Positions 6,412 through 41,636 of a stretch of DNA of 64,000 nt are shown piece by piece. The DNA is from a virus. The stretch lies in IMG/VR virus record IMGVR_UViG_3300009082_000002, positions 32,001 to 96,000 of that record; one strand, written 5' to 3'. The notes under the pieces were generated by a model. The model was not told the DNA's origin. It searched no databases and worked only from the letters and a program-made list of their open reading frames with translations. Each line of letters begins with the position of its first letter. Within the stretch, counting starts at the first letter, position 1. The translations under genes were made by a program, and so were the position numbers.

Positions 6412-6546
6412 TGGCGAGTAAACTTTCTGGCGCAACGCTCGTCGATCGGGCTCACTGCCGAAGGCCACACGTGGGCAGAGGAAGCCTCCGGTTGAACCCG
6501 GGCCAGAGGCGAAAGCAGGACGACGTGGACGCGGTACGGGGACGTG

Positions 6547-8201: not shown

Positions 8202-8334
8202 CAACGTGCCAAAGGATAGCTAACTTCGCATTATCACAACAGAACACCAGCGCCAACGTGCCAAAGGCCCAACGTGCCAAAGGATAGACAACTCCGCATT
8301 ATCACACGATATTCGCCGCGACAACGTGCTAAAG
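8202..8334. repeat. Iteron-like direct repeats (CAACGTGCYAAAG x4; 37-bp unit x2)
   Basis: Core copies start at 8202, 8254, 8270 and 8322. 8202-8238 matches 8270-8306 with 3 mismatches. Confidence 0.85.
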
Positions 8335-8454
8335 ACCCCAGCGCCCAAGGCGCGCGGCTCCGGCGCACCAAGCCCAGCGCCGGGAGCGCGGGCCACGCGT
8401 AGCCAAGGCGCGCGTGGTGCGTGAGCCGAGCCCGGCGCGCTGGCAGCTCCGCGT

Positions 8455-8660
8455 CCGCATCCTGCCACCACCTGGGCAAGCCTGGGCCAGCCCGCCACCT
8501 GCCACGCACTGCCACGCGGGCCGGCCTGCCACCTGCCACACGCTGCCACGTTCTGCCACGCCACGCGGCCAGCTTGAGCTTGCTCGCCTCCTACCGCATC
8601 CTGCCACCAACCAGGCAAGCCGGGCCAAGCCCACCTCCTACCACATCCTGCCACCAACCA
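8455..8660. repeat. TGCCAC hexamer cluster and 27-bp direct repeat
   Basis: Nine exact TGCCAC copies; CCTCCTACCRCATCCTGCCACCAACCA at 8587-8613 and 8634-8660. Confidence 0.85.
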
Positions 8661-9007
8661 TGCCCGGGTTCAGCCAGGCCCGGCAATGGCAGGAGGCCAG
8701 GATGGGAAACCGCGGTGCCTCGGGCCGGTAGGATGCCGCGCAGGATTGGCTCTCATCCTTCCGATCCTGCCCGAACAGGCCGGCCCTTGCCCCGTCGCCC
8801 GCCAGCCCGCGCGTGCTCGGGATTGCCTGGCCCCCTCCCGATTCAAGCACGCCCCGGAAACCCGTCACTAAAAGCCAGGCTTTAATAACCCAGGCCTGGG
8901 CCAGCCGCACGGCTGCCTCCCGTGCCCACGTTTCCGGAAAAATTTTTTGGCGCGAGGACTCGGTACCTCCGCTGTGCTCTTCGCGAACCATCGCGCGGAG
9001 GTGCTTG

Positions 9008-9256: not shown

Positions 9257-9558
9257 TGAGCTGGAACAATGTCGTCCGCCTCTCCGCGCCGGTCGTCAAC
9301 CAGCTGCGGCGCGAGAGCGACAAGGTTCAGCTCCCGGAAGATGTTGTCCGGCTGCTCCTGGACGTCTACGGCACCGCGACGCTGAACTGGGTGCGCGCCA
9401 TGCCCGACAGCCGTGCGGGCTTTGAGATCATCCGTTGTGCCGCGCTCGACGCGCTCGGGCTCCACGGGGACACCTTGCTCGGAATCCTCACCGGTGCAGG
9501 TCTCGACCCCCTGGTGCTCGAAGCGTTCTGGCGCGCAAGGGCACGGGACACGCGATGA
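9256..9558 (+). CDS. Hypothetical protein
   Basis: Translational coupling on both sides. Confidence 0.6.
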   Translation: MSWNNVVRLSAPVVNQLRRESDKVQLPEDVVRLLLDVYGTATLNWVRAMPDSRAGFEIIRCAALDALGLHGDTLLGILTGAGLDPLVLEAFWRARARDTR

Positions 9559-9809
9559 CCTCGCAGGAGCGAATCGACAGGCTCGGCCGCGTGCTGTGCT
9601 TCACGCCGGGCTCGGCCGGGTTCGACCTGAAGCAGGACATCGGTGGTCGGCGGTGCTGGTGGCTCGTCGGCGGTGTCGAGGGCGACCAGGCGCTGCCTGG
9701 CACCTGCGGGATGAACACGCTGGCCGAAGCGCTGGACGCGGCCGAGGCGTGGTTCGCGCCGGAGGTCGACGAGTTCGAGAACGCGTCGGCAAGGGCAAGA
9801 ACGCGATGA
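9555..9809 (+). CDS. Hypothetical protein
   Basis: ATGA overlaps. Confidence 0.55.
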   Translation: MTSQERIDRLGRVLCFTPGSAGFDLKQDIGGRRCWWLVGGVEGDQALPGTCGMNTLAEALDAAEAWFAPEVDEFENASARARTR

Positions 9810-10150
9810 GCGAGTGCGACTCGGCCGCGCGGCCGCGGCACGCCCGGGCTCTGCGTGACGTGGGGCTCGCAGCGGTTCGTCGTCACGGTCGAGGAGCTGG
9901 AGGAGAGACGGTGAAGAAAGACGCACGCACGGAGCACGGGCCGGTGATCATCGAGGACCTGGCCGGCGTGCCTGCGGCCCTTTACGAGCTGGCCGAGCGT
10001 CTCTCGTGGAACGGGAAGCCGATCTCCGCCTCACGGGTCGAGAGCTGCGCACGGGAAAGTGCTGTCCTTCTGGCCAGCGCGCGCTTCGTGCCGCTGTTCT
10101 CCAGCCTGCCTCAACTTGGGCCGTTGAATCCGGCCCGGAGGAATCGCTGA
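9806..10150 (+). CDS. Hypothetical protein (start may be GTG 9911)
   Basis: Gene tiling; strong GGAGGAG SD before 9911. Confidence 0.45.
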   Translation: MSECDSAARPRHARALRDVGLAAVRRHGRGAGGETVKKDARTEHGPVIIEDLAGVPAALYELAERLSWNGKPISASRVESCARESAVLLASARFVPLFSSLPQLGPLNPARRNR

Positions 10151-26114: not shown

Positions 26115-27569
26115 GTGTCGATGGCCAGTGCGTCAGCTAAAGCGATCCGTGTCGACGAGAAGGAAGAGCTCGTCCGCGCCTTTGGCGAGTATGAGGCCAT
26201 CTCCAATGAGACCCTACGACGCGAGATTCTGCTCAACAGCCGATTCGACCTGCTCGCGGAATACGTGCTTGGCATCGAGCTGGAGCAAGTCCACCGTGAG
26301 CTGATCGCATACGCGCTCGAACACCCGGAGTCTCTGCACCTTGCCTTCCGTGGTTGCGGGAAGACGACTTCCTTCGTCTGCGTGTACATTGTCGGCCGCT
26401 TGCTTCAGAACCCGGAGCTTTGTATCCTGATCGCATCGCGCGCCGGACAGTACGCCAAGGCGATCTTGAAAGAGGTCAAGGGCCACCTAGTCAGCGAGCG
26501 GCTGGTCAGGATCTTCGGCGAGCAGATTGGCGAGAAGTGGGAAGAGACCGAGATCGTCGTCGGGCGAAAGAAGCGAAATACGAAGGAAGCCTCGGTCACG
26601 GCGCTCGGCGCCGAGGGCTCGATGACCGGTCGGCACTTCGACATCATCTTCTTCGACGATGGCGTGGACTTGGCGAACAGCCGCACGCGTGGCCAGCGCG
26701 AGAAGATCAAGGAATTCTACTACACGACTCTCGACCCGTGCCTGAAGCCGGGTGGAGAGCGCAAGGTCGTCGGCACACGCTACCATCCGCACGACCTCTA
26801 TGGCTGGCTCTCCGCTCACGAGTACAAAGGTTGTGCGCAGATCCTTCCGGCCCTGCACGAGGTCCGCGATGGCGGCGGATCGGTCACATACTACTCCAGC
26901 GCGCCAAAGCGCTTCACAGTCGAGTACCTCCTGGGCAAGCGATCCACGATCCCGACCTTCTCGTGGGTCACGCAGTTCCAGTGCACGGCGGAGCGGTTCC
27001 AGGGCAAGGTCTTCAAGCCGGAGTACTTCGAGGCCGAGGGCTTCTTCTTCACCGGCCCATTGCCGACCGGCCCTCTCTTCCAGTCCGTCGACCCTGCCGT
27101 GACCGAGGACACAAAGAATGACTACTTCGCCCACATGACTGGCGTCGCTGATCACGAGGGCCACGTATGGGTCGACGTCTTCCACAACATCCGTATCGAG
27201 TTTCCGAAGCAATCGCAGTTTTGCCACGATGAATTTGAGGCGCGCGATCCGGTGCGACTTGGTATCGAGAGCAACGCATACCAGAAGGCGCTCGGCCAGC
27301 AAATTGTCGCCGACTACCCGGACCTCAAGGGCAAGGTGATCGGCGTTCCGACCGACAAGGACAAGATGACTCGGGCCCTGAAGTTGACAGCCTATTTTGA
27401 GGCGGGCAGAATCCACTTCAGACCGGAGCACAAGGAACTCGTCGAGCAACTGCTGGAGTTCCCGGACGGAGAACACGATGATCTTTTCGACGCCCTGTAT
27501 CTGCTAGTCTTGCTCGGGACGCGGATGCGGGTGAAGAAGAAGCGGCGCAAAGAGCCGGGCGTCCTTTGA
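26115..27569 (+). CDS. terL: Terminase large subunit
   Basis: Walker A AFRGCGKT, Walker B TGRHFDIIFFDD, GTRYH..D, nuclease VDPA / IESN / HDDLFDAL. Confidence 0.95.
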   Translation: MSMASASAKAIRVDEKEELVRAFGEYEAISNETLRREILLNSRFDLLAEYVLGIELEQVHRELIAYALEHPESLHLAFRGCGKTTSFVCVYIVGRLLQNPELCILIASRAGQYAKAILKEVKGHLVSERLVRIFGEQIGEKWEETEIVVGRKKRNTKEASVTALGAEGSMTGRHFDIIFFDDGVDLANSRTRGQREKIKEFYYTTLDPCLKPGGERKVVGTRYHPHDLYGWLSAHEYKGCAQILPALHEVRDGGGSVTYYSSAPKRFTVEYLLGKRSTIPTFSWVTQFQCTAERFQGKVFKPEYFEAEGFFFTGPLPTGPLFQSVDPAVTEDTKNDYFAHMTGVADHEGHVWVDVFHNIRIEFPKQSQFCHDEFEARDPVRLGIESNAYQKALGQQIVADYPDLKGKVIGVPTDKDKMTRALKLTAYFEAGRIHFRPEHKELVEQLLEFPDGEHDDLFDALYLLVLLGTRMRVKKKRRKEPGVL

Positions 27570-27580
27570 AGGGAGCAGGC

Positions 27581-29407
27581 ATGGCAGATCAGAAGGTGGT
27601 GAGGATGCGACGGCGCCCGGTCGTGGGCTCCGCGAAGTCTTCTCCCAGCGACGCAGTCGAGAGCGGTGCAGTTCACATCGTGGACCACGCGTCTCGAGCT
27701 GTCGTCAAGGCGCTGGTGATCGAGGCCGACGCGGAGAAGGTGCCGGTGCCGACGTCCCAGGTCATGCCCGACGATCCCTTTCAGTCGCTCCTCGACAACC
27801 GTCAGATCCTCGCGCCGCCACTCGACCCGCGGCTGCTCGCGTCGCTGTGGGAGTACAACTCCCACCTCGGCCCGTGCATCGCGACGATGATGGTCAACTG
27901 CGAGAGCTTCGGCTATCAGTTCGAGCCTCGCATCCGCGTCAACGAGGACACGTCGAAGGCGGTGCGCCAGCGCATCGAAGAGGAGCGCCTCATCCTCGAC
28001 AACTTCTTCGGCAACTGCGTGATCGAGGGCGACGACAGCTTCACCGGTCTACGGATGCGGAAGCGGCAAGACGAGGAGGCCATCGGCTTCGCGGCGTGGG
28101 AGGTCATCGAGGTCAACGGCGACCTTCTCGGCTTCAACTACATGCCAGCTCATACCGTCCGGCTGACGGGGCTCGACGAAAAGCGGGTCCGTATCGGGCG
28201 CAAGCTCCTCGTCCGCGGGGCCAGCGGTGTCTTCTCCTACGTCGAGCGACCGGTCTGGCGGCGGTTCCGCAAGTTCGTCCAGGTGCGCGGGACCAAGATG
28301 AGGTGGTTCAAGGAGTACGGCGACCCGCGCATGATGAACGCGGACTCTGGCGAGTACGTCGACGACCCCGCCAAGCTCCCGGTTCACAAGCGGGCCAACT
28401 CCGTCCTCTTCTTCGCGCTGCCCGCGCCGCGCACGCCATACGGCATCCCGCGCTACATCGGCAATCTTCTCGGGGTCTACGGCTCGCGCGCGACCGACGA
28501 GATCAACTTCTTCACCTTCGAGAGCAACAACGTGCCGTCGATGGTCGTGATGGTCAGCAACGGGATGCTGACCGAGGGCTCGGTGGATCGGATTCAGAAG
28601 TTCGTTGAAGCGCAGGCCAACGGCCAGCGGAACTACAGCCGCTTTCTCATCCTCGAAGCGGAGACCGACAGCGAAGGTCTCGGCGACCCGGGCCGCGTCG
28701 CGCTCCATATCGAGCCGCTCACGAATCAGCAGCGGACCGACGCTCTCTTCACCGAGTACAAGAAGCAGTGCAAGTCCGATGTGCGTCAGAGCTTTCGCAT
28801 CCCGGACCTTTTCTTCGGCGAAGCCTCATCGTCTGCCGGAGGCGCGGTCGGCGCGATGGAGATCATGAGAAAGCTCACGGATGAACAGGTCTTCATGCCG
28901 GAGCGCAACGCCTTCGACGACCGCATCAACAAGCTCATCATTCCGGCGCTGGGCGTGGTCTATCTGAAGTTCAAGAGCAACACGCCGGAGACGACGGACA
29001 ACAAGGATCTCATCCGCATTCTCGCAATGGCCGAGAAGTCCGGTGGCGTCACCCCACGGATCGCTCGCGAGGTACTCAACCGCGTGGTCGGGCAGAACCT
29101 CGGCGACGTCACGGATATCGAGCCCGACGTCCCCTTCTCGCTCCAGGTCGCGGAAGCTGCACGCAGTCAAGGCGATCCGCGCACAGCGCTCTCCGTGCCC
29201 GGTACCAACTCGCTCCGCAGGATGGGCGCGACGACCCGCGCCGAGCTAGGGCTGGAGTCCACGGCCAAGGCGGAGGACGGCGACGAACCGTGGGAAGGCG
29301 AGGCCGTCATCGCAAGCCTCGGCTTGCTCCACAACAAGATCGCCGAGGAGCAAGCTCGCCGCGCTGGCAAGATGGTCAAGCGCGAGCGGCCGAAGCCCGT
29401 CGAGTAG
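27581..29407 (+). CDS. Portal protein (PBSX-like)
   Basis: Follows TerL; IG.AAWEV, P.HTVR, YGIPRY, FF..N.VP, SFRIP motifs; GGAG SD. Confidence 0.9.
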   Translation: MADQKVVRMRRRPVVGSAKSSPSDAVESGAVHIVDHASRAVVKALVIEADAEKVPVPTSQVMPDDPFQSLLDNRQILAPPLDPRLLASLWEYNSHLGPCIATMMVNCESFGYQFEPRIRVNEDTSKAVRQRIEEERLILDNFFGNCVIEGDDSFTGLRMRKRQDEEAIGFAAWEVIEVNGDLLGFNYMPAHTVRLTGLDEKRVRIGRKLLVRGASGVFSYVERPVWRRFRKFVQVRGTKMRWFKEYGDPRMMNADSGEYVDDPAKLPVHKRANSVLFFALPAPRTPYGIPRYIGNLLGVYGSRATDEINFFTFESNNVPSMVVMVSNGMLTEGSVDRIQKFVEAQANGQRNYSRFLILEAETDSEGLGDPGRVALHIEPLTNQQRTDALFTEYKKQCKSDVRQSFRIPDLFFGEASSSAGGAVGAMEIMRKLTDEQVFMPERNAFDDRINKLIIPALGVVYLKFKSNTPETTDNKDLIRILAMAEKSGGVTPRIAREVLNRVVGQNLGDVTDIEPDVPFSLQVAEAARSQGDPRTALSVPGTNSLRRMGATTRAELGLESTAKAEDGDEPWEGEAVIASLGLLHNKIAEEQARRAGKMVKRERPKPVE

Positions 29408-29416
29408 GATCGAAGG

Positions 29417-32400
29417 ATGATCCTCGCAGCGCGCAAGCTAGGTCCGATGGATGCCATCTTCCGGTCGATGACCGACGAGCAACTTGCGACCGCGAAGGCG
29501 GTCGCTCGCGAAGCTCTCCAGTGGTCGGGCGTACTCAAGGCGGCAGATGTCTATCTCGGCGTCGACGAGGATCTCTCCGCGACGCTCCTGCACAAGTGGG
29601 ATGCCAAAGCGAAGGAGCAGATTGACAAAGGCGCCAAGGTGCTTGCGAAGGCGCAGAAGGGCGAGGTTGTCCAGTCCACGCTGAAGGGTACGTTGTGGAA
29701 GCTCGGCAAGGTGATGGGCGAGGAGTATGGCGAGGCCGTGTTGCCCGACTTCATCCGCGCGACGCTACTGACCTGGAGTCTGGCAAGCAAGGAAACGATG
29801 GGCCGACTTCAGCTCAAGTGGTCAACCGAACTTGTCGACCAGAACGCCGCAGCTCGGCTTTCCAAGTTCCACACCTATTGGGTCGGAAAGCACTACGAAA
29901 CTAGCATTGCGAATTCGCTCCAGATCGCCACGCGGCAGACCATCATCGAAGGCGGACTTGCTGGCACGCAGGCAGCCAACGCCTTCCGCGACATCGCCTC
30001 GAAGTACTTGGCCGGCAAGGGCGAGTCCTTCCCCGAGGTTCCGAAGGGCTGGACTGGCACGACGGACGAGTACTTTGCTGGGCTCGCGAATCACGTCGGC
30101 ACACAGGCCCGCGTCTTCAGCCGACTCGAATCCTACGAGCGCGTCGGGATCACGACCTACACCATCGTCGCCGTCCTCGACAACCGGACGAGCGATATTT
30201 GCCAGATGATGCACGGGCAGACATTCACGGTCGAGCAAGGTCTCGGCGTCGCGGAGACCTGGACGGAGGAGTACACTCCAGAGGCAGTCAAGGAGAAGGC
30301 CGGCTGGATGCGCGCGCAGGACGCAGCCAAGCTCGCCGGGCTGTCGGACTACAAGCCCGGCACGGTCTCACCAAAGATCAGCCCGAAGGGAATGGACGCA
30401 CTGGCCGAGGCTGGCATGGCGCTTCCGCCGTACCACTTCCGCTGCCGGACAGACATCGTCGCGGAGCAGGAGGTCATGACCTTCCCGAGCGGCGGCGAGC
30501 CGACTTACAAGCCGGTGAAGCCGCCGAAGGCCGAATCGCCGAAGCCGCCGCCGGCCGCGCCTACGCCGCCATCCAAGGCGACGGGCGGATTCCCGTGGCA
30601 GATGTCCCAGCTCACGTCGGTTGAGAAGTCCGCGAAGGGAATGCACGCCAAAGCCTTCTTCCACGACCCGGACGGCAACGAGTGGATGTTCAAGCCCGCG
30701 CCGGAGGGGCTGCGTTTTCGTGCAGAGGTCGAGAAGCTGGCTGCCGATGCGGCGCGCGCGCTCGAAGTCGACACGGCCGACGTCTTCATGGTTGAGCACG
30801 AAGGAAAGATCGGGACGATTCAACGCCTCTTCAAAGACATCAAGCACGACGGGCTCACCAAGGTCGGCGTCCAGGGCTTGACGCAGGAGCAGGTCGCACA
30901 GCTCCAGCGCCAGCACATTTTTGACTGGCTCATCGGGAACAACGACGGCCACATCGACAACTTCCTCGTCTTGAAGGACGGCAAGCTCGTCGGCATCGAC
31001 CGAGGGCAGGCCTTCCGCTATTTCAAGACAGACAAACTCGCGCTCGACTACAACCCCAATGCGCGCTATGGGATCAAGGTCTTCTACAACGACGTCTTCG
31101 CAGCGGCACGCGACGGCAAGTTGCCGACTGGCGTAGAGATGCTCGGGCTCGACGCGCCGGAGATTGCCAGTCTGGTTAAGAAGGCCGAGTCGCTGTCCGA
31201 CGAGCAGTGGCTTACGATCTGGCGGCCGTACATCGACGGCGCGATGAAGAACAAGAGCCTCGCCTACGGCTCGCGCGCCGCCTTTGAACGCGAGCTACTT
31301 CGACGGAAGAACCAGCTAGGGAGTGATCTCGACGAGTTCTATCGCGGCCTCCTCGGAAAAGGACGCGCGGCGCGTCGGACAGCGGAGACGCAGAAGGGTG
31401 TCCTGACTCCGGTTGACAAGTCCTTCGTGAGTGAGATGCAAGCCGCGAAGAACCGCGGCAAGTCCGTGCTCGTCGCGTCGGAAGAGATCGAAAACGGCAA
31501 CGTCCTCGTCTACACCTACGCGGACGGGACGGTCGTGGTCGAAGGCAAGATGCGGAAGCTCGCCGACGAGATGGTGCGGGCGCAGCTTGCTGGCCCGCAG
31601 GCTGCGGGCGCAACGCCGGGGACCGACTCGCTGTGGGACGACGTGCTCTCCTGCATCAAGTCTTTCAATCACCATCTCGGGCCAGGCGGCAGCGGTACGA
31701 TCCCGGACAGCAAGCAACGTCTTTTCGTGCGGACGCTCAACGCGGCAAAAAAACAATGGGCCGAAGGCTGGACCGTACCGGGCGGGACGCAGGCTGGACA
31801 GATGGGTGAATACTACGTCAAGCTCCTCCAGCAGTATGGGACCGAGTCGCTCGGGATGCGGCTGACCACAACGACAAAGAAAATGCTCGGCGTCAAGAAC
31901 CAGCCGTTCAAGGTGCCAGGCGTGAAGGCCAAGGCACTCGCTGGTCGCGTGAAGCGGTCGAGCATCGAGAGAATCTACGAGGAGGAGCGCAAGCTGGTCC
32001 GCGGAGTGATCAAGAACAAGCACGGCGAGATTGCGAGTCAGTCCACCTTCGGATGCGGAATGGATGAGACCAAAGAGATGATTGTGGCTGTGCTCGATGA
32101 CGGCACGGAGATCCACTACATCCCACACAACGGATATAGGCAGGGCCAGGCGTACTCGAAGCAAGGCCGCTTCAGGATTAAGGTGCAACCGGCTACCGGC
32201 GCGAAGGACGTCACGCCGAAGCAAGTCCAGAAGGCACTTGACGCCATCGGTGATCTCGGCGTCTCGCCGAAGCTGATGACCGAGGCCGACTTCGAGTTGC
32301 TCTACTTGCAGAAAAACCAGTTCGCGATGGGCTACGCGAACGATGCGGCTTTCGCCAACATCCCGGCCAACGGCTCAACCGAGGAAAAAATCCAGGCGTA

Positions 32401-33067
32401 CCTCGACGCCTTCAGAAAGAAGCTGCGGAAAAATCCGCGTTCGCTGCCCGGCTACGATCCGCGGCCGGTCTACTACAGCGGGGACAACGCGGGCATTCCG
32501 CGTTTCCGGCGTTTCGACATTGACCGGAAGAAGCTAGCAGAGGCGGACCTTGAATTCACACACAGAGTTCAAGGGGGCGCGGATGAAGTGCTTCTTTCGA
32601 TCATCGACGGAGAGTCTGGCGGCTTGATCTCGACGGAGGAGAAGCTCCGTCGCGGAGTTGAAATCAGCGGGATGAGCCCTGGCGAGGACCAGATGACCGG
32701 CGGTGCGCAATACGTTTTCGCGCGGGCGAAGGGGATTGGCCGGGAGCGCAACTGGAACATGATCATCTTTAAGAAGGAACTGGCACTCGACACGAACATG
32801 GTCTCCTATTCGACAGACAAATTCGGGTGTATGGAGCCAGGCAGGAAGGAAGCGACTCGCGCGAAGACGTTTCAGAAGTTGATGGGTTTCCGCAAATTCG
32901 ACGCTAATGAGTCGCTCATCAAAAACGAGATTCCGCTGGACATGTGGGAGCACGTCATCGTCAGGCGGTCCACGCGGGTCAAGCTACTCGATGAACTCGA
33001 AAAGCGTGGCGTGAAGACACTTGGCGGGAAGCCCGTCGAGGAGTTCGTGATCGGGCTCGGGAGGTGA
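29417..33067 (+). CDS. MuF (SPP1 gp7-like) head protein fused to a HipA/PI3-4-kinase-like domain and a C-terminal putative toxin domain
   Basis: AVLDNRTS.IC..MHG and PPYHFRCR (MuF); WMFKP, FDWLIGNNDGH.DN, IDRGQAF (kinase); position after portal. Confidence 0.85.
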   Translation: MILAARKLGPMDAIFRSMTDEQLATAKAVAREALQWSGVLKAADVYLGVDEDLSATLLHKWDAKAKEQIDKGAKVLAKAQKGEVVQSTLKGTLWKLGKVMGEEYGEAVLPDFIRATLLTWSLASKETMGRLQLKWSTELVDQNAAARLSKFHTYWVGKHYETSIANSLQIATRQTIIEGGLAGTQAANAFRDIASKYLAGKGESFPEVPKGWTGTTDEYFAGLANHVGTQARVFSRLESYERVGITTYTIVAVLDNRTSDICQMMHGQTFTVEQGLGVAETWTEEYTPEAVKEKAGWMRAQDAAKLAGLSDYKPGTVSPKISPKGMDALAEAGMALPPYHFRCRTDIVAEQEVMTFPSGGEPTYKPVKPPKAESPKPPPAAPTPPSKATGGFPWQMSQLTSVEKSAKGMHAKAFFHDPDGNEWMFKPAPEGLRFRAEVEKLAADAARALEVDTADVFMVEHEGKIGTIQRLFKDIKHDGLTKVGVQGLTQEQVAQLQRQHIFDWLIGNNDGHIDNFLVLKDGKLVGIDRGQAFRYFKTDKLALDYNPNARYGIKVFYNDVFAAARDGKLPTGVEMLGLDAPEIASLVKKAESLSDEQWLTIWRPYIDGAMKNKSLAYGSRAAFERELLRRKNQLGSDLDEFYRGLLGKGRAARRTAETQKGVLTPVDKSFVSEMQAAKNRGKSVLVASEEIENGNVLVYTYADGTVVVEGKMRKLADEMVRAQLAGPQAAGATPGTDSLWDDVLSCIKSFNHHLGPGGSGTIPDSKQRLFVRTLNAAKKQWAEGWTVPGGTQAGQMGEYYVKLLQQYGTESLGMRLTTTTKKMLGVKNQPFKVPGVKAKALAGRVKRSSIERIYEEERKLVRGVIKNKHGEIASQSTFGCGMDETKEMIVAVLDDGTEIHYIPHNGYRQGQAYSKQGRFRIKVQPATGAKDVTPKQVQKALDAIGDLGVSPKLMTEADFELLYLQKNQFAMGYANDAAFANIPANGSTEEKIQAYLDAFRKKLRKNPRSLPGYDPRPVYYSGDNAGIPRFRRFDIDRKKLAEADLEFTHRVQGGADEVLLSIIDGESGGLISTEEKLRRGVEISGMSPGEDQMTGGAQYVFARAKGIGRERNWNMIIFKKELALDTNMVSYSTDKFGCMEPGRKEATRAKTFQKLMGFRKFDANESLIKNEIPLDMWEHVIVRRSTRVKLLDELEKRGVKTLGGKPVEEFVIGLGR

Positions 33068-33073: not shown

Positions 33074-33502
33074 ATGGGTCGGTACTCCACGCGTGGCGAC
33101 AAGGCAACCATGGCCGCGGCGCAGGCGCACTTCAACCAGCTCATCAAACGATACGGCGGGGTCGTCGTCGAGCCGTTCTTCGCTGACGAAGACGGCTCCG
33201 AGTTCGCTGCTGCCGGCTTGCTGCCGACCGACCTCGTGATTTTTGATGAGGACGACCGCCGCTTCGGCTGGAGCTTCGGAACTTGCCCGCACGTCCTTCG
33301 GTTCCACGAGGCGCGGATCGATGACGTCGATCTGATCTTGCTCGGGTACATGCGCGGCGACGACGAGCAGTTGACGGGCGTGGTCGTCTCTGGCATCCTC
33401 TTCGGCGTCGACGCGGAGACGCTCAAGCAGGGGAAGAAGGACGTCGGCGGGGAGCTGTGGAAGCAAGCGGAGGCTGACTTGCTGGAGGCGATGAGTGGCT
33501 GA
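33074..33502 (+). CDS. Acidic hypothetical protein, candidate immunity protein
   Basis: GGAGGTG SD; directly after the MuF fusion. Confidence 0.6.
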   Translation: MGRYSTRGDKATMAAAQAHFNQLIKRYGGVVVEPFFADEDGSEFAAAGLLPTDLVIFDEDDRRFGWSFGTCPHVLRFHEARIDDVDLILLGYMRGDDEQLTGVVVSGILFGVDAETLKQGKKDVGGELWKQAEADLLEAMSG

Positions 33503-33854
33503 CCGGACCTACACCGCGGTTTTCGTCCAGCGAATGGAAGCCGACGACCTCACTACCATCGCCGCGCTCGCCTTCTGGGAACGTGACGCCTGTGTACTCC
33601 CGGTCCCTGGCTTCGAGCAAGCCGCGCTTCTCTGGCACCATCGCCTTCTCGTGGCCAGACAGCACGGCGTCACGCCCCAGGAATTCTATGAGGAGTGGGA
33701 CGGGCACAACGGCGTGACCTACGGCTTCGGACCGCCGGAGCGGGTGCGCGCCCGAAGCGCGGCTGACGCCTGCCGGAAGGTACTCGCACAGCACCCGAAC
33801 TTCGGCGGCACCGTCAATTGGGATTCCGCGCAGGAGTTCGGCCCGCAGCCGTAG
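33495..33854 (+). CDS. Hypothetical protein, candidate immunity protein
   Basis: GGAGG SD; overlaps the upstream stop. Confidence 0.55.
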   Translation: MADRTYTAVFVQRMEADDLTTIAALAFWERDACVLPVPGFEQAALLWHHRLLVARQHGVTPQEFYEEWDGHNGVTYGFGPPERVRARSAADACRKVLAQHPNFGGTVNWDSAQEFGPQP

Positions 33855-33864: not shown

Positions 33865-34038
33865 ATGAGCAGAGATCCGCTTGTTGAGATCGAGCAGCGC
33901 TACCGCGCGAAGAGGCTCTCCGCTCTCGGCCTCGCCAGCATCATCAGACGAGCCTGCGACACCTTTGAGGCATCCGAGCGACTGCGCAAGCGTTGGTCCG
34001 CACGCAAGGCCGTGATCGATCAGGAGGCCGGTCGATGA
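33865..34038 (+). CDS. 57-aa hypothetical protein (not in ORF track)
   Basis: GGAGGGG SD, ATG 33865, stop overlaps the polyprotein ATG (ATGA). Confidence 0.5.
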   Translation: MSRDPLVEIEQRYRAKRLSALGLASIIRRACDTFEASERLRKRWSARKAVIDQEAGR

Positions 34039-37000
34039 AGATCAAGGACATCTCGCCGACTTCCTTGCGCGGAGTAAAGGACCAGGAGCTTCTCTCGCTC
34101 CACCTTCGGACTCATCAGCTTTACGGCGCGAACTTCGGGCCGGACGCCCCGCCAGAGCGCGGCTACCGCGACGACACGGGAGACACGGCCAAGGACGGCT
34201 TGAGGCTCGACGAGGAGACCGCGCGGAAGATCTGGCGCGGCGAGGTCAAGGCGGTCACCTTCTCCGACGACCCCGGTGACGTTGAGCGCGCTCTGTTCCT
34301 GCTGTCGCCCGGCTTCGCCTACGGCATCATCCGGCTTGACGAGACCGACACCGACGACCACAAGTACAAGGTCGACTACTTCCGCGCTTTCGAGGTGCCG
34401 CTCACATTCAAGGGCACGGGCGACGGCCTGCTCGTGACGGGAGTCGAGATCACGTCGGAGGAGTCGCCGCTGTCGCTGGAAGACCTGGTCCACGCTCACC
34501 AGTTCATCCTCGACGAGATGAACCGCCGGAAGATGCGCCACCAGTGGGCCTCGCAGCTCGACGACGAGACCAGCCCGGGCGAGGAGATTGAGAAGGCGAC
34601 CGGACCTTTCAAGCGCTGGGGTGGGTCTGCCCAGTACGCAGCAAAAATCGCGAAGTACGTACCAGCGAACGCTGGCGCGTACATCGAGCCCTTCGCTGGT
34701 GCGGCCAGCGTGTTTTTCTCACTGACCGACACGCCGAGGAAGCGCGTGCTGGCCGACCTGGACCCGGAGCTAGTTCACGCCTTCAAGATGATCCAGGGCG
34801 CGGCGAAGAACGGGCTCATCAAGGCGCTCGAAAAAAAGGACCGTGTTGTCAGCGAAAAGCAGTGGCAGAAGTTGCGGCATCGGATTCCGAGCGGCGACGT
34901 CGAGCGCGTTCATCGGTTCCTGTACCTGCTCGGCGGATCGTGGTCCGGCGTGCGGAGTGGCGCGCGCCCGAACAAGAAACGAGTCGGTCAGATTTCCTAC
35001 GATCCGAAGCGGCTGGAGAAGTTCATCAAGCCGTTGCAGGGCGTGACGCTCAAGAACCAGAACTGGCAGAAGACGCTGAAGGACAACGACGCGCCGGACG
35101 CCTTCTTCTTCATCGATCCGCCGTACCCGGGCGAGTGGGACAAGAACGCCGACGACACAGGCACGGACGGCAAGCAGTTCGACGTCGAGGCTCTTGTCGA
35201 GGCGATGAAGGATCTGAAGGGTGGCTGGCTTCTCGTTCTTGGCGACACCAAGACCCAGACGGATGCGCTGGCGAAACTGGAGAAGGAAGCCGGCGCATCT
35301 CGCTTCAAGATCCAGTTGAGCGAGGCTGCGAGTTCTGGTGGGCACAAGGAAGCCTATCGGTACTTCGCGATGCGCCCGCTTCAGTCCCGCGTGCGGAAGG
35401 CCGACGACGTTGGCGTGAGCCGCGACCAGGTACTCGACCTCATGGAAGAGGCCGGCAGCTTTGTGGTGGTACCGAGTTATGTGTCGCTCGTCGGCTCCGT
35501 CGTGACCGGCGAGGATGACCAGTCGGCACACGACATTGATCTGCTTGTTCGCGATGACGAGATCGATTCCAAGGTCGGGCTCAAGCTGGACCGCCTCTTT
35601 CCCGCGTCGATGCGCGACAAGGTCCACTACATCCCCGACCCGCAGGGACCGAATTGGGATCACCTGCCGCTGTACGATCTGGTCCTGCGGAAGCGCAGCG
35701 CGCTGGAAGTGGTCGAGGTCGATGAACCGGAGTACCACCCCTTCCTGTCCGGCGATGTGCGCCGCTACGGCGAGCAAGTCGCGAAGGGGAAGTTCACCAT
35801 CGTCCGTGGAATCTGGGGCTCGCCCGGCGGCAAGGCTTTTCTCGCAAAGCGCATCGCCACCGTCATCCCGCCTCACAAAATCTACGTCGAGCCGTTCGCT
35901 GGCGGTGGCGCGGTTCTCTTCGCGAAGCCGCCGGTCGAAAAGGAAGTCGTCAACGACCTCGACAGCGAGATCGCCTTCGCGTGGCGGTTCGTCAGCAAGG
36001 TCACGGACGACCAGCTCGACGCGCTCCGCAAGATGAACTGGGTGGCGAGCGGCAAGCTGTTCGCCAAGCTGCGTGACATGAAGCCGCCGTCCGATCCGGT
36101 CGAGCGATTTCATCGGTTCATGTACCTCTACCGCTGGAGCATCAACGGCAACCGCGAGAAGACGCACACGATGCCGCCGACCTACGAAGGGCTCCGGCAG
36201 CAGGCAGTCGAAGCGGTCGAGCGGTGTCGCGAGCGCGTGCATGGCCTCATCGTGCGGAGCGCCGACTACGAGAAGGTTATCGACGAGTTCGACAGCAAGG
36301 ACACCTTCTTCTTCATCGATCCGCCGTACAAGCATTATGATGCCCAGCTCACCGAGGAGAAGAAGCAAGAGGACTTCGACGAGGAGCGATTCGTCGAGGT
36401 GCTGAAGAAAATCAAGGGCAAGTTCCTTGTGACCTACGGAATCCGCAGCGGCACGGATCTCTTCAAGGGCTTCACGGTCCAGCGGTGGCAGCACCGAGGT
36501 CGGCCCGGGCCGGCCGTGGGCGGCAAGTTCCAGAAGGTCACGACGCTCATGGTCTCAAACTATCCGCTGCCGCAGCGGACGCGCAAGGCGAAGGTGGGGC
36601 TCATGCAGCCCTTCACTCCGCTGAAGGCGAAGGGCGGGTACCATCAGGGCGAGTTCTTCGAGGCCGACCCGCTGTGGGATCTCTGGGCTGGCCCTGCGAT
36701 CAAGGACGGGAAGACCGTCGCCGTCGAAACCAAGTTCGACGGAATTCGGATGGTCATCCACAAGGAAGGCGACAACGTCGCGATCTACACCGAGGATAAG
36801 AAGCGCGACCGCGCGAGCATCCTTCCGGACTTGGCCGACGAGGTTCGCAAGCTGACAGTCGAGAACGTGATCCTTGACGCCGAGGTCGTCTGGTGGAAGG
36901 GCAGCAAGCCGCTGGCCCGTCACGACATGATGGCGCTCGTTGTCGGCAAGGACCCGATCAAGGGCGAGGATATCCGGGCCAACGTGTTCGACGTCCTGTG

Positions 37001-39323
37001 GTTCGGCGGCGAGGGCAGCCTGGCCGATGAGTCGTGGGAGGATCGCCAGTCGTACCTGCGCAAGGTTCTGCCGAAGGATGGGAAGCATCTCATTCGCGTG
37101 GTGCCGCGGCTGGTCAACAACCGGCGCGAGTTCGATGCCGCACTCAAGGCTGCGCGTCGAGCAGTCGGCAGCGAAGGCGCGATGCTGAAGCTCGCCAATG
37201 CGCCGTACGATCTGGAAGGCCAGACTGGCGCGTGGGCCAAGCTCAAGGACGTGTACGAGATCAAGTGTGTCGTCATCGGTGTCCGCAAGAAGATCCCGAG
37301 CGAGCAGGAGGACCCCGGCTTCAAGAAGGACCCCTCGCGCTGGAACTACGCCGGTATCAAGGAGCCCAGCGCTTTCACCTACCGCTGCGCCGTCCGTGGT
37401 GAGGGTGGCAAGCTCATCCCCATCGAGGGCGAGCGGACGTACACCGGCTCGGATCTCAAGGTGCGGTGGGTCGAGAAGGGCCAGAAGGACCCGGTGACGG
37501 GTGAGACCGCGAGCGAGAGCGAGTGGCGCGGTACCGACGATCCGAAGCTCTGGAAGATGGGGCTCGGCTTCAACAACCGCGACGTCGGCGACACCGAGTA
37601 CGGCACGACCTACGGCACCGGAGTCGAGGCGAAGATCGGTGACGTCATCACGGTCTCTCCGGTCTTGGTCCGAGAGTGGGTCGGGGACAGCGGCCGGCGT
37701 CACTACTCGTGGACCTTCCCCATCGTGCGCGAATCCGACCCGACACGCGACGAGCCTGACCGCGTCGAAGACCTGCGGCGCATCGCAGCGGCGAGCCGGC
37801 AGCGCGCACCGGAGAAGATGCCGAGCGAGGAAGCCGTCGAAACCGCGGCGGTGTCGAAGTCCGTCGCGAGGATCGCCCACCTGCAGAAACAGCGGCGCGG
37901 CGACCTGGACCCCGACGAGACCAAGCTCAATCGCGAGGAGGAACGCGAACGGCAGGAGAAGATCACGGGCGACCCGTACATGGTCGAGCAGAAGGCCAAG
38001 GCCAAGGCACGGTTCGTCTTGCAACAACACTATCGCGGGTTCTGGTCGCCGGACGAGCGGAAGCAACTGCGAGACGGAATCACGCGGGCTCGCGAGCTGG
38101 CCGAGTCCGACAAGAAAGATGAGGCCAAGGATCTGCTCAAGGGTCTCTGGCAGGAGTACCAACCGCTCATGCTCAAGGCCAGCATCGCAGAGATCCGCGA
38201 GGCAGCCGAGGCCGCAGACAACGCAGGCGAAGGCGAGGTCAGTCCGGCGGTTGCGCGCCGTCTATCGGAAGCGGTGCCGATGTTCGATGAGCTCGAAGGG
38301 GTCGAAGATCGGATCGTCAACCGGGGCAACGTCCACACCGACCTTCGGATGGAGTCGCCGTCCGGCGACTGGCTGATCGGCTGGACGCTGGATACGCCGA
38401 AGCTGGCCCTGCAGACGCTCGACGGGAAGGCGCATGACCTCCTCCGGTCCTACGTGATTGACAACAAGCCGGACGACAACGCGCTCGCCCAGCGCAAGCT
38501 GGTCCAGCCCGAGAACTGGCTGGCCATCGTCAACGAGAAGAAGCCGATCTACCAGACCGCTCCGGGCGACGTCGGCTCAACGCGCGGCACCGCTGGCGAG
38601 TACCACTACATTGACTCGGGCGTTGTGATCTTCGGCGTGCAGAAGTCCGACTATCACGAGTACTTCTTCTTCCCCGAGAAGCACAAGGGCTGGGCCGGTC
38701 GGTGGGGGCTGCAGCTCATCGAGGGGAGCCCGAGCTACGCCCGCGCGCCGAGCGAGTTCTGGATGGCCAACCGGCCGAAGGAAACGCAGACCCCCTACAT
38801 CCAGACGCACGACCTCGACGAGGAGGAGAAGAAGGCCAAGACCGACAAGATCGACCTCGTGTGGAACCCCGACACGGTCGAGGCACTGAAGGCGGTCGGG
38901 TACGAATCGCTCGCCGACGTGTCGAAGTCCGCTGGCGGCGAGCTTGAACCGATCAGCGTCAACGTCCGAATCGTGAAGGCGGCGAAGGAGGAGCGGTACG
39001 TTCTCGGCGTTGTGATGAAACCGGATGACGTCGACGCCCACGGAGAGATTACCACGGCAGCCGAGATCAGGAAGGCTGCCCACAATTTTCTTGTCAATGG
39101 TCCGAAGATCGGCTATCAACATGAAGAGACACCTGGAGGTCTGATCTTGATCGAGAGCTTCCTGGCCCCCGCAGAGTTCAAGCTCGGTGGCGAGACGATC
39201 ACTGTTGGCACCTGGCTCATCGCGGTTCGCGTGAACAACGACAAGGTGTGGAAGGCCGTCAAGGAAGGGAAGATCACCGGCTTCAGCATCGAAGGTTACG
39301 CAAAGAAAGTGCCGCTCGAATAG
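34035..39323 (+). CDS. Polyprotein: Dam MTase, NTase-like, Dam MTase, ATP-dependent DNA ligase, LigD phosphoesterase-like, XkdF-type prohead protease
   Basis: Two EPFAG..DPPY sets (DPPY at 35115 and 36318); VGS..DID (35490-35540); ETKFDG (36726), LDAE, FDVL, EGAMLK, WAKLK; FVLQQH..HTDLRME; PDDVDAHG..AAH.F..H..IES..GTW..GFSIEG. Confidence 0.85.
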   Translation: MKIKDISPTSLRGVKDQELLSLHLRTHQLYGANFGPDAPPERGYRDDTGDTAKDGLRLDEETARKIWRGEVKAVTFSDDPGDVERALFLLSPGFAYGIIRLDETDTDDHKYKVDYFRAFEVPLTFKGTGDGLLVTGVEITSEESPLSLEDLVHAHQFILDEMNRRKMRHQWASQLDDETSPGEEIEKATGPFKRWGGSAQYAAKIAKYVPANAGAYIEPFAGAASVFFSLTDTPRKRVLADLDPELVHAFKMIQGAAKNGLIKALEKKDRVVSEKQWQKLRHRIPSGDVERVHRFLYLLGGSWSGVRSGARPNKKRVGQISYDPKRLEKFIKPLQGVTLKNQNWQKTLKDNDAPDAFFFIDPPYPGEWDKNADDTGTDGKQFDVEALVEAMKDLKGGWLLVLGDTKTQTDALAKLEKEAGASRFKIQLSEAASSGGHKEAYRYFAMRPLQSRVRKADDVGVSRDQVLDLMEEAGSFVVVPSYVSLVGSVVTGEDDQSAHDIDLLVRDDEIDSKVGLKLDRLFPASMRDKVHYIPDPQGPNWDHLPLYDLVLRKRSALEVVEVDEPEYHPFLSGDVRRYGEQVAKGKFTIVRGIWGSPGGKAFLAKRIATVIPPHKIYVEPFAGGGAVLFAKPPVEKEVVNDLDSEIAFAWRFVSKVTDDQLDALRKMNWVASGKLFAKLRDMKPPSDPVERFHRFMYLYRWSINGNREKTHTMPPTYEGLRQQAVEAVERCRERVHGLIVRSADYEKVIDEFDSKDTFFFIDPPYKHYDAQLTEEKKQEDFDEERFVEVLKKIKGKFLVTYGIRSGTDLFKGFTVQRWQHRGRPGPAVGGKFQKVTTLMVSNYPLPQRTRKAKVGLMQPFTPLKAKGGYHQGEFFEADPLWDLWAGPAIKDGKTVAVETKFDGIRMVIHKEGDNVAIYTEDKKRDRASILPDLADEVRKLTVENVILDAEVVWWKGSKPLARHDMMALVVGKDPIKGEDIRANVFDVLWFGGEGSLADESWEDRQSYLRKVLPKDGKHLIRVVPRLVNNRREFDAALKAARRAVGSEGAMLKLANAPYDLEGQTGAWAKLKDVYEIKCVVIGVRKKIPSEQEDPGFKKDPSRWNYAGIKEPSAFTYRCAVRGEGGKLIPIEGERTYTGSDLKVRWVEKGQKDPVTGETASESEWRGTDDPKLWKMGLGFNNRDVGDTEYGTTYGTGVEAKIGDVITVSPVLVREWVGDSGRRHYSWTFPIVRESDPTRDEPDRVEDLRRIAAASRQRAPEKMPSEEAVETAAVSKSVARIAHLQKQRRGDLDPDETKLNREEERERQEKITGDPYMVEQKAKAKARFVLQQHYRGFWSPDERKQLRDGITRARELAESDKKDEAKDLLKGLWQEYQPLMLKASIAEIREAAEAADNAGEGEVSPAVARRLSEAVPMFDELEGVEDRIVNRGNVHTDLRMESPSGDWLIGWTLDTPKLALQTLDGKAHDLLRSYVIDNKPDDNALAQRKLVQPENWLAIVNEKKPIYQTAPGDVGSTRGTAGEYHYIDSGVVIFGVQKSDYHEYFFFPEKHKGWAGRWGLQLIEGSPSYARAPSEFWMANRPKETQTPYIQTHDLDEEEKKAKTDKIDLVWNPDTVEALKAVGYESLADVSKSAGGELEPISVNVRIVKAAKEERYVLGVVMKPDDVDAHGEITTAAEIRKAAHNFLVNGPKIGYQHEETPGGLILIESFLAPAEFKLGGETITVGTWLIAVRVNNDKVWKAVKEGKITGFSIEGYAKKVPLE

Positions 39324-39338: not shown

Positions 39339-40352
39339 ATGTCGAAGAAGGCCGAGCGCGAACTCAAGGACATCGTGGTCACGAATGTGGACCTTGTGGA
39401 CCGCGCCGCGAACGAGGAACAATTCGCAGTCGTGAAACGGAAGGAGGGCCGAGGGATGGCCGACAAGACCAAGGTGAAGAAGGACGAAGAGACCGAGGAG
39501 GAGAAGGTGGCCGGCGAGGTGGCAGGCGCCGCCGAGACCGAGACCGACACGGAGGCCAGCACCGATGAAGGCGGCGACGACAAGAGCGCGGTCGCCAAGA
39601 CGGCCGAGGCCGTCACGGGCCTGACCGCGCGGCTCGACTCGCTCCTCGACCACCTGGAGAAGAAGGGCAAGACCTCGAAGCAGGACGAGGACGAGGAGGA
39701 CGTCACGAAGGCGGACGGGATCAAGATGGCCAAGGACGCGCTCGCTGCGGCCCTCGTCGTCAAGAACCTGCCGGCCGACGCGAAGGCCAAGATCGAGTCG
39801 GCAATCGCCCTGCTCGACAAGATGAAGGCCAACGGCTACGGCTACCCGAAGCCGACCGAGGCCAAGAAGTCCGAGAGCGTCGTCGGCGACGCCGAGGCCG
39901 TGGCCAAGGCCGGTCGCATCCTGTCGAAGGCCAACCTCGGCAAGCTCCAGACCGCGGCCAAGGCCATGAACGACGCGACCGAGACGATCACATCCATGCT
40001 CAAGCAGGCGATGGGCACGACCGACGAGGAGGAGGACGAGGAGGCCAAGTCGAAGACGAAGAAGGCCAAGGCCAAGAAGCAGGACGACGAGGAGGACGAG
40101 ACCGACGTCGAGGCCAAGAAGGCCAAGGGCAAGAAGGCCGAGAAGGCCGAGGACGAGGACGAGGAGGTCAAGAAGTCGCTACTCGCGATCTCCGACAGCC
40201 TCACCAAGATCAGCAAGCGGCTCGACGACGCCGAGGCCGCCGTGGGGATCACCAAGTCCCTCGGCGACGGCGAGGATGCTCCCGAAGGCGAGACGGTCAA
40301 GAAGTCGCAAGGCGGCCTGTGGGCCGGACTCGGCCTGGTGCCGGGGCGCTAG
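39339..40352 (+). CDS. Capsid scaffolding protein with N-terminal protease-fold strand
   Basis: N-terminal RELKD..VDLVDRAAN..F.V.K; K/E/D/A-rich helical body; lies between protease and capsid; internal AAGGAGG + ATG at 39456. Confidence 0.75.
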   Translation: MSKKAERELKDIVVTNVDLVDRAANEEQFAVVKRKEGRGMADKTKVKKDEETEEEKVAGEVAGAAETETDTEASTDEGGDDKSAVAKTAEAVTGLTARLDSLLDHLEKKGKTSKQDEDEEDVTKADGIKMAKDALAAALVVKNLPADAKAKIESAIALLDKMKANGYGYPKPTEAKKSESVVGDAEAVAKAGRILSKANLGKLQTAAKAMNDATETITSMLKQAMGTTDEEEDEEAKSKTKKAKAKKQDDEEDETDVEAKKAKGKKAEKAEDEDEEVKKSLLAISDSLTKISKRLDDAEAAVGITKSLGDGEDAPEGETVKKSQGGLWAGLGLVPGR

Positions 40353-40427
40353 CAGCAAGGACAACCGACGCGTTGACCGCGTAGGAAGAACCGGGTGAAG
40401 GAACCCACGAGAGAAGGAGGCAGGAAT

Positions 40428-41636
40428 ATGCCGGCAGTGACCAACAGAGAGGCGCTCAAGAAGGCGGTCATCACGACGGACTCGATCACGACCGCCGGGA
40501 AGCTCAACCCCCTCCAGGCGGATCGGTTCATCGACTTCGTCTGGGACGTGACCAAGCTCAAGGGGCACGTGCGGACCGTCAAGTTCCGCAACGACGAGAT
40601 GTACATCGACAAGGTCGGGGTCGGCACTCGCGTCGCGGTGCCGAAGGTCGAGGCCGTGGACCCGGGTGTCCGGCGCGGCATCACGACCTCGCGCGTGACG
40701 CTGAAGCCGTCCGAGGTCATGTGCCCCTTCGAGATCAGCTACGAGATGCTCGACGAGAACCTGGAAGGCGAGGCCTTCGCCGAGCACCTGGTCAAGATGT
40801 TCGCCACGCAGTTCGGCAACGACATGGAGGAGCTGTGCATCAACGGCGATGCGCTGGGCCCGGCAGTCCTCCAGTCCGAGTACGTGGCCGGCGGCAGCGC
40901 GACCAAGTACGTCAAGGACGCGTACCTCGCGCTTCACGACGGCTGGCTGACCCTCGCGCGGCAGGGGCACGGTGTCGACTTCGCCGGGGCCAACGTGAGC
41001 AACCGCCTCTTCAGCCGACTGATCAACGCCCTGCCCGAGAAGTTCAAGAAGGACCGGACCAAGCTCCGCTTCTTCTGCTCCACGGACTTCGAGCAGAACT
41101 ACCGCGAGAAGGTGGCCGCCCGGGCGACCGGCAAGGGTGACGTGGCGCTGATGAGCGAGATGCCGCTGACGCCCTTCGGCGTGCCGCTCATCGCGGTGCC
41201 GCTGCTGCCCTTCCAGCCGAAGGTGGTCCAGCACATCGTCCTGACCGGCACCACGGCGACCGCGCTCCTCTTCAAGGATGTGACCAGCGTGGTCGTGACG
41301 ACCTCGACCCTGGACGCCACCCCCGAGGATGCGTACACCGAGGGCGCGGGTGGTGACTACGTGCTGGATGCGGTCAACGGCACCATCGCTCGGACCGCCG
41401 GCTCGACCATCGGTTCCGGCGCGACCGTGAAGGTGACCTACAACGCCGAGGCCCAGGTCATCTGCACGCACGAGAGCAACTTCATCATGGCGCTCGGCCG
41501 TGACTCGATCCGGCTGGAGACGGACCGGGACATCTTCAAGTCCACGCTCCAGTACTCGCTGACCGCCAAGATCGACTGCGAGTTCGAAGAGGCCGATGCG
41601 ATCAGCTTCGGCTACAACATCGGGCTCGACGTCTAG
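40428..41636 (+). CDS. Major capsid protein (HK97 fold) with beta-rich insertion
   Basis: G.LNP.QA.RFI, EISYE.L.EN.EG, F..D.EEL..NGD, DGWL, LP.K; AAGGAGG SD; extreme codon bias. Confidence 0.93.
   Translation: MPAVTNREALKKAVITTDSITTAGKLNPLQADRFIDFVWDVTKLKGHVRTVKFRNDEMYIDKVGVGTRVAVPKVEAVDPGVRRGITTSRVTLKPSEVMCPFEISYEMLDENLEGEAFAEHLVKMFATQFGNDMEELCINGDALGPAVLQSEYVAGGSATKYVKDAYLALHDGWLTLARQGHGVDFAGANVSNRLFSRLINALPEKFKKDRTKLRFFCSTDFEQNYREKVAARATGKGDVALMSEMPLTPFGVPLIAVPLLPFQPKVVQHIVLTGTTATALLFKDVTSVVVTTSTLDATPEDAYTEGAGGDYVLDAVNGTIARTAGSTIGSGATVKVTYNAEAQVICTHESNFIMALGRDSIRLETDRDIFKSTLQYSLTAKIDCEFEEADAISFGYNIGLDV

Follow-up and report, generated by a model that had tools for sequence, protein, structure and literature searches.

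The 64,000-nucleotide stretch of viral DNA analyzed here, which we call the window, comprises bases 32001-96000 of a complete IMG/VR virus record of 107,406 bp (IMGVR_UViG_3300009082_000002) and carries, as part of a late head operon, one long gene for a 1762-aa protein (P0001; hereafter the polyprotein) in which a series of enzyme domains ends in a prohead protease domain of the XkdF type. This combination of DNA-acting enzymes with a C-terminal prohead protease suggests that the chain is a phage polyvalent protein. We think with moderate confidence that it is a capsid-directed cargo polyprotein whose XkdF end would bind a β-strand on the long form of the neighboring scaffold protein and enter the procapsid, where the protease would cut the chain and the freed enzymes would act on the genome. 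Cargo loading is the best available reading because variable N-terminal parts ahead of XkdF are the rule in this protein family and because the XkdF domain is the sole recognizable prohead protease of the complete genome. The sequence-only reading of this DNA had cast the protease domain as a capsid-targeting tag; its idea of loading stands in this sense, while the domain alone is probably not the whole tag, as the scaffold seems to hold the missing strand.

In the course of events that we envisage, the scaffold-borne strand would complement the XkdF domain and tie the polyprotein to the scaffold, so that the two would co-assemble inside the procapsid, and this complementation would possibly switch the protease on only there. 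Most of the scaffold would be a short isoform made from an internal Shine-Dalgarno (SD) sequence and ATG, which would keep the copy number of the cargo low. The protease would then cut scaffold, capsid and the linkers between the domains of the polyprotein (at a recurring x-K with A, S or G as the next residue), and these cuts would free the methylases, a nucleotidyltransferase (NTase)-like domain, the ligase and a phosphoesterase (PE) within the head. Once released, the enzymes might act on the phage genome by methylation, end-cleaning and sealing, either while it is being packaged or once they have been ejected along with it.

Integrity and domain content of the polyprotein

The open reading frame (ORF) is free of stops from either TTG 33993 or ATG 34035, the latter with an AGGAGG located 8 nt 5' of it, up to its TAG stop codon, and its G+C content at third codon positions in frame (GC3) is 0.84, uniform along the gene and within the range of the genome's other genes. 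A homologue from another data source, P0002, measures 1761 aa and has 92% identity to P0001 over 100% of the length, so that the uninterrupted 1762-aa frame claimed initially is borne out. An assembly artefact or a set of fused pseudogenes, which the metagenomic origin of the sequence might bring to mind, is hardly credible: The full-length match from an independent source makes misassembly or gene decay unlikely, GC3 is uniform, and dozens of colinear relatives exist. The genome itself carries an exact 123-bp direct terminal repeat at its ends.

Seven segments can be distinguished in the polyprotein, five of them identified (Table 1), and they follow one another in the order in which the sequence-only reading had listed them. 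Two segments are D12-class (Dam-family) DNA methyltransferases (MTases) that match PF02086 with 129 bits in two stretches and TIGR00571 with 151.9 bits (cut-off 114.85), each copy keeping both the S-adenosylmethionine motif EPFAG and the DPPY motif. The ATP-dependent DNA ligase matches PF01068 with 78 bits (cut-off 26.2), has 3gde as its best solved relative (E 3e-17) and displays KFDG (K900), LDAE, EGAMLK and WAKLK, corresponding to the KxDG lysine and motifs III, IV and V; in the ~200 aa past its adenylation domain (aa 1084-1290), a Pfam search gave no match and an oligonucleotide/oligosaccharide-binding (OB) fold was not detected. At the C-terminus, the XkdF domain matches PF14550 with 103.9 bits (cut-off 24; 108 bits in the genome search) and contains the family-invariant residues D (DVDAHG, aa 1665), H (GYQH, aa 1696) and S (GFSIEG, aa 1751), which are invariant across 82 and across 46 aligned relatives and for which we assume a catalytic role.

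The phosphoesterase-like segment was recognized by its fold. Its sequence drew a blank in Pfam, NCBIfam, PDB sequence and profile searches and in a six-frame search of the genome with PF13298 (LigD_N), and a helical insertion of ~90 aa, which interrupts the barrel behind its first strand and thus splits the domain, may be the reason for the absent match. An AlphaFold2 (AF2) model of the region, made with six homologues in the alignment (mean pLDDT 65, core 80-94), was compared with 48,161 chains (VIA) and found the LigD-type 3'-phosphoesterases 3p4h_A at Z 9.8 (109/118 aligned, rmsd 2.6) and 3n9b_A at Z 7.9, with the next score at 4.7. Foldseek likewise placed 3p4h first (probability 0.94) and had four LigD-PE entries among its top rows. 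Residues H1332, H1434, D/E1436 and R1438 are invariant across 7 relatives.

Between the two MTases lies a small segment with the motif GS-x11-DID, which by eye fits the hG[GS]-x9-13-DxD signature of nucleotidyltransferases. Its match to PF01909 remains below threshold (13.8 bits, cut-off 21, E 0.078), and its Atlas neighbors carry PF01909 as weak leads (score 0.88-0.89). In a phmmer domain map it is a conserved module among relatives, where the two ends of the N-terminal region (aa 1-35 and 145-180) recur adjoining it. The intervening aa 36-144 look like an insertion, and the N-terminal 190 aa as a whole have no match in Pfam or the Atlas.

Among the assignments made at the outset, the two Dam-family MTases, the ATP-dependent ligase and the XkdF-type protease at the C-terminus are thus upheld by profile matches and signature motifs, and the LigD phosphoesterase-like region is upheld by fold only, being invisible to sequence searches. 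For the proposed nucleotidyltransferase, the motif stands, whereas the profile score below cut-off leaves the segment as an NTase-like lead.

Several of these domains are the only ones of their kind in the genome. Other prohead proteases of the HK97, ClpP and S49 types were not found in it, and a search for the T4 type (S77) was uninformative, matching no control genome. The polyprotein also holds the genome's only ligase, whether ATP- or NAD-dependent, and its only D12 methylases; a search for Ku found none.

The linkers between the domains share a pattern that is compatible with cleavage after lysine. The motif [IVLT]-x-K-[ASG] occurs at 15 sites in the polyprotein against 7.6 +/- 2.7 in shuffled sequences (p ~0.006), and six of these sites fall 1-17 residues from the six domain borders, with linker lysines near aa 187, 455, 584, 851, 1275 and 1631. 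At matching linkers of P0003, P0004 and P0010, a Lys again precedes Ala, Ser or Gly, though the linkers themselves differ. The same motif is found 7 times in the scaffold and once in the capsid protein (residue 21).

Variable cargo ahead of a constant protease

A word-indexed search retrieved 55 clusters of 970-2650 aa in which XkdF is combined with varied enzyme domains. Its partners there include 1-3 Dam methylases, ligase, C5 and other methylases, RNA ligase, DHH, NUDIX, metallo-beta-lactamase (MBL), uracil-DNA glycosylase (UDG) and GNAT domains, and modules shared between clusters differ in their order. P0057 fuses UDG, ligase and GNAT with XkdF. The two methylases and the ligase adenylation domain of the polyprotein share 38-65% identity with P0003, P0004 and P0010.

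With the XkdF domain as query, an exhaustive HMMER scan yielded 6763 representatives, from which the best 150 were used for counting. XkdF lies at most 15 residues from the protein end in 134 of these 150, and the 134 proteins span 129-2643 aa with variable N-terminal parts; at least 100 residues precede the domain in 112 of the best 150, at least 300 in 57 and at least 1000 in 8. Among 82 of these proteins, analyzed with Pfam, the N-terminal parts are mostly unannotated, and the cargo that could be named comprises D12 MTases (10), InPase (6), UDG (4), DNA ligase (4) and ChaB (2) besides several 2H/LigT phosphoesterases, one MBL and one Tad3, an inhibitor of type I Thoeris. Tabulating the cargo of XkdF fusions, as the sequence-only reading had suggested, therefore finds the fusion design to be common, and variable N-terminal cargo before a constant C-terminal XkdF is, as far as these sequences go, the rule among relatives.

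The same genes could be read as a device for late expression in the producer cell, in which the protease domain cuts the enzymes free, be it in the cytoplasm or at the head under assembly, and these methylate and nick-seal progeny DNA ahead of packaging or in its course but are neither carried in the virion nor injected. The position of the gene in the late head operon would suit this, and the genome's only ligase and D12 methylases may serve ordinary replication or maturation. Moreover, unfused enzymes occupy the same slot elsewhere, so that a covalent link to the protease is not obligatory: In locus L002, the cargo is spread over three genes at 4383-8837, an MTase (238 aa), a ligase protein (689 aa) and a PE-XkdF protein (441 aa), and in locus L003 (6879-14771) an MBL-fold gene is followed by a gene for ligase and D12 MTase without XkdF match. 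Yet this account leaves unexplained why hundreds of unrelated cargo types are fixed ahead of a protease of the capsid interior and why the cargo includes counter-defense types useful upon entry (Tad3, 2H phosphoesterases, UDG), and we regard it as rather unlikely compared with head-borne cargo.

A predicted protease strand and a possible second start on the scaffold

Modelling suggests that the XkdF domain ends one β-strand short of the assemblin fold. The strand predicted to complete it lies near the N-terminus of the scaffold, in a motif with NVDLVDRAAN at its center. The usual form of this motif, EVSLVDRAAN, is found ~35 residues past XkdF on the same polypeptide in P0019, P0028, P0029, P0032, P0053, P0097 and P0100, and the scaffold N-terminus resembles the tails that follow XkdF in two of these fused relatives, P0028 and P0019. 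In P0149, P0167, P0168 and P0169, the motif is instead N-terminal to XkdF. With VSLVD[RK]AAN placed on either side of XkdF depending on the protein, the protease fold seems to have undergone circular permutation.

For the structural comparison, an artificial fusion of the XkdF domain, the read-through and the first 39 scaffold residues was modelled with AF2 using an alignment with 45 relatives. In the resulting model (pLDDT 83.8) the motif forms a 14-residue strand (160-173, pLDDT ~94). The model aligns with T4 gp21 (5jbl_A) at Z 10.9 over 124 residues (rmsd 3.0, model residues 31-175), with the protease of varicella-zoster virus (VZV; 1vzv_A) at Z 8.6 (model residues 37-187) and with that of human cytomegalovirus (HCMV) at Z 6.9, all three alignments crossing the scaffold-borne strand, and predicted viral head proteases from BFVD align over 175-197 of the 192 columns. 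The C-terminal domain thus has the assemblin fold that the sequence-only reading had made a point on which its proposal should stand or fall. The gp21 and herpesvirus proteases share this fold at 13-16% identity to the XkdF model and differ from it in being single polypeptides with the complete fold. A model of Peptidase_S78 (HK97-type) matched neither the strand motif nor the fused relatives, giving no sequence tie to S78.

The separation of protease and strand into two genes is widespread among 80 viral loci (69 distinct, and related to one another) that were retrieved by the N-terminal pattern of XkdF. In these, all XkdF ORFs end 0-96 nt beyond the domain, and in 72 of the 80 (61 of the 69 distinct loci) the motif follows after 58-270 nt, close to where the next ORF starts. 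Many of the gene pairs overlap as ATGA, and the design is probably one of two genes whose translation is coupled.

In the window, the scaffold ORF is in frame with the polyprotein and starts 15 nt past its single TAG, and natural cargo-XkdF-scaffold fusions exist. One could therefore imagine that TAG 39321 is occasionally read in the manner of Gag-Pol, so that a polyprotein-scaffold fusion enters the procapsid via its scaffold part. We consider this very improbable because the frame of the scaffold relative to XkdF varies (29/7/25 for offsets 0/+1/+2 at the 61 distinct loci), because up to 5 stops intervene in same-frame cases and because TAG is common, ending 45 of 114 ORFs of the genome (TGA 60) with no sign of stop-codon recoding. 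L007 (107.7 kb), the nearest relative, has its scaffold in a different frame. On the same grounds of frame distribution, TAG usage and L007, the in-frame TAG was rejected as a programmed read-through or recoding site and is taken as coincidental.

Immediately behind the strand, the scaffold gene contains a second potential start. The peptide RKEGRGM around M40 encodes AAGGAGG 8 nt ahead of an in-frame ATG, and both this peptide and the 13 bases 5' of the ATG are identical in L007 (5482-6510). Across 57 distinct scaffold genes, 38 have an ATG 11-15 codons past the motif where ~10 are expected, and 35 of these 38 have a GGAG, GAGG or AGGA core 4-16 nt 5' of that ATG against a background of 16% (p ~7e-25), though the sequences behind these counts are related and the p-values overstate their independence. 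The conserved SD and ATG after the strand predict a long, strand-bearing and a short form of the scaffold.

Taken further, these observations would mean that XkdF-type prohead proteases are usually split, with the missing strand on a low-abundance long isoform of the scaffold, the bulk of the scaffold made from the internal SD and ATG, and complementation acting both as a hook for cargo and as an assembly-dependent switch of the protease. We propose this tentatively, judging it slightly more apt to fail than to hold.

Besides the relatedness of the counted sequences, several points weigh against the idea of a capsid-directed cargo polyprotein. It builds on facts of sequence, from which we infer binding, loading, cleavage, activity and delivery. 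The docking of the strand comes from a single AF2 model, that of the artificial read-through fusion. As some relatives have the motif ahead of XkdF, it might play a structural part other than that of a last strand. In the cytoplasm of the producer cell, late-made methylases can methylate progeny DNA without any packaging or injection. Finally, the metal and phosphate ligands of Pseudomonas aeruginosa LigD PE are presumably His42, His48, Asp50, Arg52, His84 and Tyr88, and in a by-eye alignment the apparent positions of His84 and Tyr88 are occupied by an invariant Gln1491 and Trp1495, so that the PE domain of the polyprotein may be altered or inactive.

The possible loss of two LigD catalytic residues, together with the OB domain that Pfam did not detect behind the ligase adenylation domain, could also indicate that the enzyme folds mainly provide protein mass for the interior (core) of the head or act as ejection proteins that bind DNA, with catalysis partly or wholly dispensable. 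Both methylases and the ligase adenylation domain have nonetheless kept all their signature motifs, and these domains remain alignable to P0003, P0004 and P0010 at the identities given above, which makes a structural or inert cargo improbable in our view.

The two loci with unfused cargo differ from the window in their scaffold and capsid genes as well. In L002, the strand-bearing scaffold (188 aa, motif WSIVDRPAIEEEWLIVKRKE; 9493-10059) is found two genes downstream, behind a 138-aa ORF. The capsid gene of L003 encodes 819 aa, of which only aa 513-815 form the capsid domain, and the ~510 residues fused N-terminally to it might be a protease or a scaffold.

Relation to known systems and genomic context

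The sequence-only reading did not recognize the architecture of the polyprotein as characterized, a statement that does not hold for the class: Polyvalent proteins of phages and conjugative elements were defined computationally by Iyer, Burroughs, Anand, de Souza and Aravind (2017, J Bacteriol; PMC5512222), who proposed that an assemblin-like peptidase at the C-terminus processes the polyvalent protein during virion assembly. Like the polyprotein, these proteins join 2-15 unrelated and mostly enzymatic domains in one chain, occur with head genes of terminase-portal phages and have the peptidase, when present, at the C-terminus just as XkdF is here. Members of the class are also expected to be packaged in the capsid and to travel with the DNA, as the polyprotein may. 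That study is computational only, its main text makes no mention of DNA ligase or LigD phosphoesterase, and it does not describe the scaffold-borne protease strand or the nested scaffold start seen here (PMC5512222). The class is thus known from computation, and the polyprotein joins it as a large and apparently intact example that has a set of end-repair domains, while the split-strand and two-start scaffold arrangement seems undescribed. A literature search found no experimental study of XkdF fusions, the coverage of XkdF/PF14550 consisting of genome notes and one comparative paper.

A precedent for head-borne cargo of this kind is the Dar system of phage P1. DarB, a DNA-modifying protein of ~2,000 aa predicted at ~45 copies, resides in the head and accompanies the DNA on ejection, shielding it from type I restriction, and the loading of Dar proteins is tied to head morphogenesis, with the prohead protease trimming DarA (PMC12810830). 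By description, P1 cargo is loaded via the separate adaptors Hdf and DarA on the inner wall of the capsid and not by fusion to the protease, and DarB has methylase and helicase domains without the ligase or phosphoesterase of the polyprotein.

Nested genes for protease and scaffold are known from lambda (C/Nu3), HSV-1 (UL26/UL26.5) and HFTV1 (gp17/gp17.5), the internal start having been shown by ribosome profiling. The conserved SD and ATG, a putative internal start, lie at the equivalent place in the scaffold gene of our phage. In contrast to the nested genes, TAG 39321 and the restart part XkdF from the long scaffold here, the long form keeps only one strand, and the protease polypeptide bears 1630 aa of cargo. 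The arrangement is therefore a variant of the nested protease-scaffold gene and not a member of that group.

Like the polyprotein, bacterial LigD of non-homologous end joining unites an ATP-dependent ligase with a 3'-phosphoesterase fold and a domain for adding nucleotides, the last of these being putative in the polyprotein. The two differ in domain order, and the NTase-like domain of the polyprotein resembles the minimal Pol-beta type and not a polymerase of the archaeo-eukaryotic primase type. Further differences are the ~90-aa insertion in the PE domain, which lacks a Pfam LigD_N match, the Ku that was not found and a ligase whose best solved relatives are archaeal or Lig1-type.

If the cargo is indeed head-borne, the family would be a large reservoir of virion-delivered enzymes that act before phage gene expression, spanning methylases, ligase and end-repair kits, UDG, 2H phosphoesterases and a Thoeris inhibitor fold, and the idea behind P1 Dar would extend to thousands of uncultured phages. 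A split protease would in addition imply a simple loading rule, namely that anything fused to XkdF is taken in when the scaffold strand is supplied; together with the long and short scaffold it could account for the control of copy number and of protease timing, and the arrangement might be harnessed to fill phage capsids with foreign proteins. Without packaging of the cargo, what is left is an unusual late-gene fusion.

The genes around the polyprotein (Table 1) follow the order TerL, portal, MuF fusion, two small ORFs, polyprotein, scaffold and capsid, in agreement with the prohead-protease slot between MuF and scaffold/capsid that had been read from the window.

Table 1. Coordinates of the polyprotein, its domains and the surrounding head genes in the window
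Feature	Position	Strand	Remarks
TerL (large terminase)	26115-27569		
Portal	27566-29407		
MuF-domain protein	29417..33067	+	1216 aa; HipA/PI3K-like kinase segment
Two small ORFs in the MuF-to-polyprotein gap	33074-33854	+	142 and 119 aa
Polyprotein ORF (P0001)	34035..39323	+	1762 aa; TAG stop 39321-39323
N-terminal region	34035..34604	+	aa 1-190; no fold assignment
D12-class (Dam-family) N6-adenine DNA methyltransferase 1	34602..35399	+	EPFAG aa 218, DPPY aa 361
Small Pol-beta-type nucleotidyltransferase-like domain	35397..35804	+	lead only; GS-x11-DID aa 487-502
D12-class N6-adenine DNA methyltransferase 2	35802..36584	+	EPFAG aa 619, DPPY aa 762
ATP-dependent DNA ligase	36582..37904	+	adenylation domain aa 892-1071
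LigD 3'-phosphoesterase-like beta-barrel	37902..38939	+	fold core aa ~1324-1564; AF2 model and fold search
XkdF-type (Peptidase_S78_2) prohead protease domain	38937..39320	+	aa 1645-1758 of 1762
Scaffold gene, long form	39339..40352	+	337 aa; begins 15 nt past polyprotein TAG, same frame
Strand motif at scaffold N-terminus	39357..39437	+	aa 7-33, RELKDIVVTNVDLVDRAANEEQFAVVK; predicted to complete protease fold
Internal AAGGAGG (39441-39447) and ATG 39456 (M40)	39441..39458	+	predicted start of short scaffold form without strand
Major capsid protein	40395..41636	+	phrog_1623, E 4e-73

The wider affiliation of the phage was approached through its relatives. A tblastn search of INPHARED returned no near relatives and matches at the methylase level only, and a profile search of genome contigs with an alignment of the NTase-like, ligase and PE domains (NT-LIG-PE) found nothing that would allow host assignment; one homologue bears the label of a Myxococcales metagenome-assembled genome, and Myxococcota are candidate hosts.

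Upstream of the polyprotein, the two small ORFs are without Pfam or PHROG match. The MuF protein that precedes them has, at aa ~488-534, a stretch resembling HipA_C / PI3-PI4 kinases, behind which come ~680 unannotated residues, and is, beside the polyprotein, a second candidate for a capsid-borne multidomain protein.

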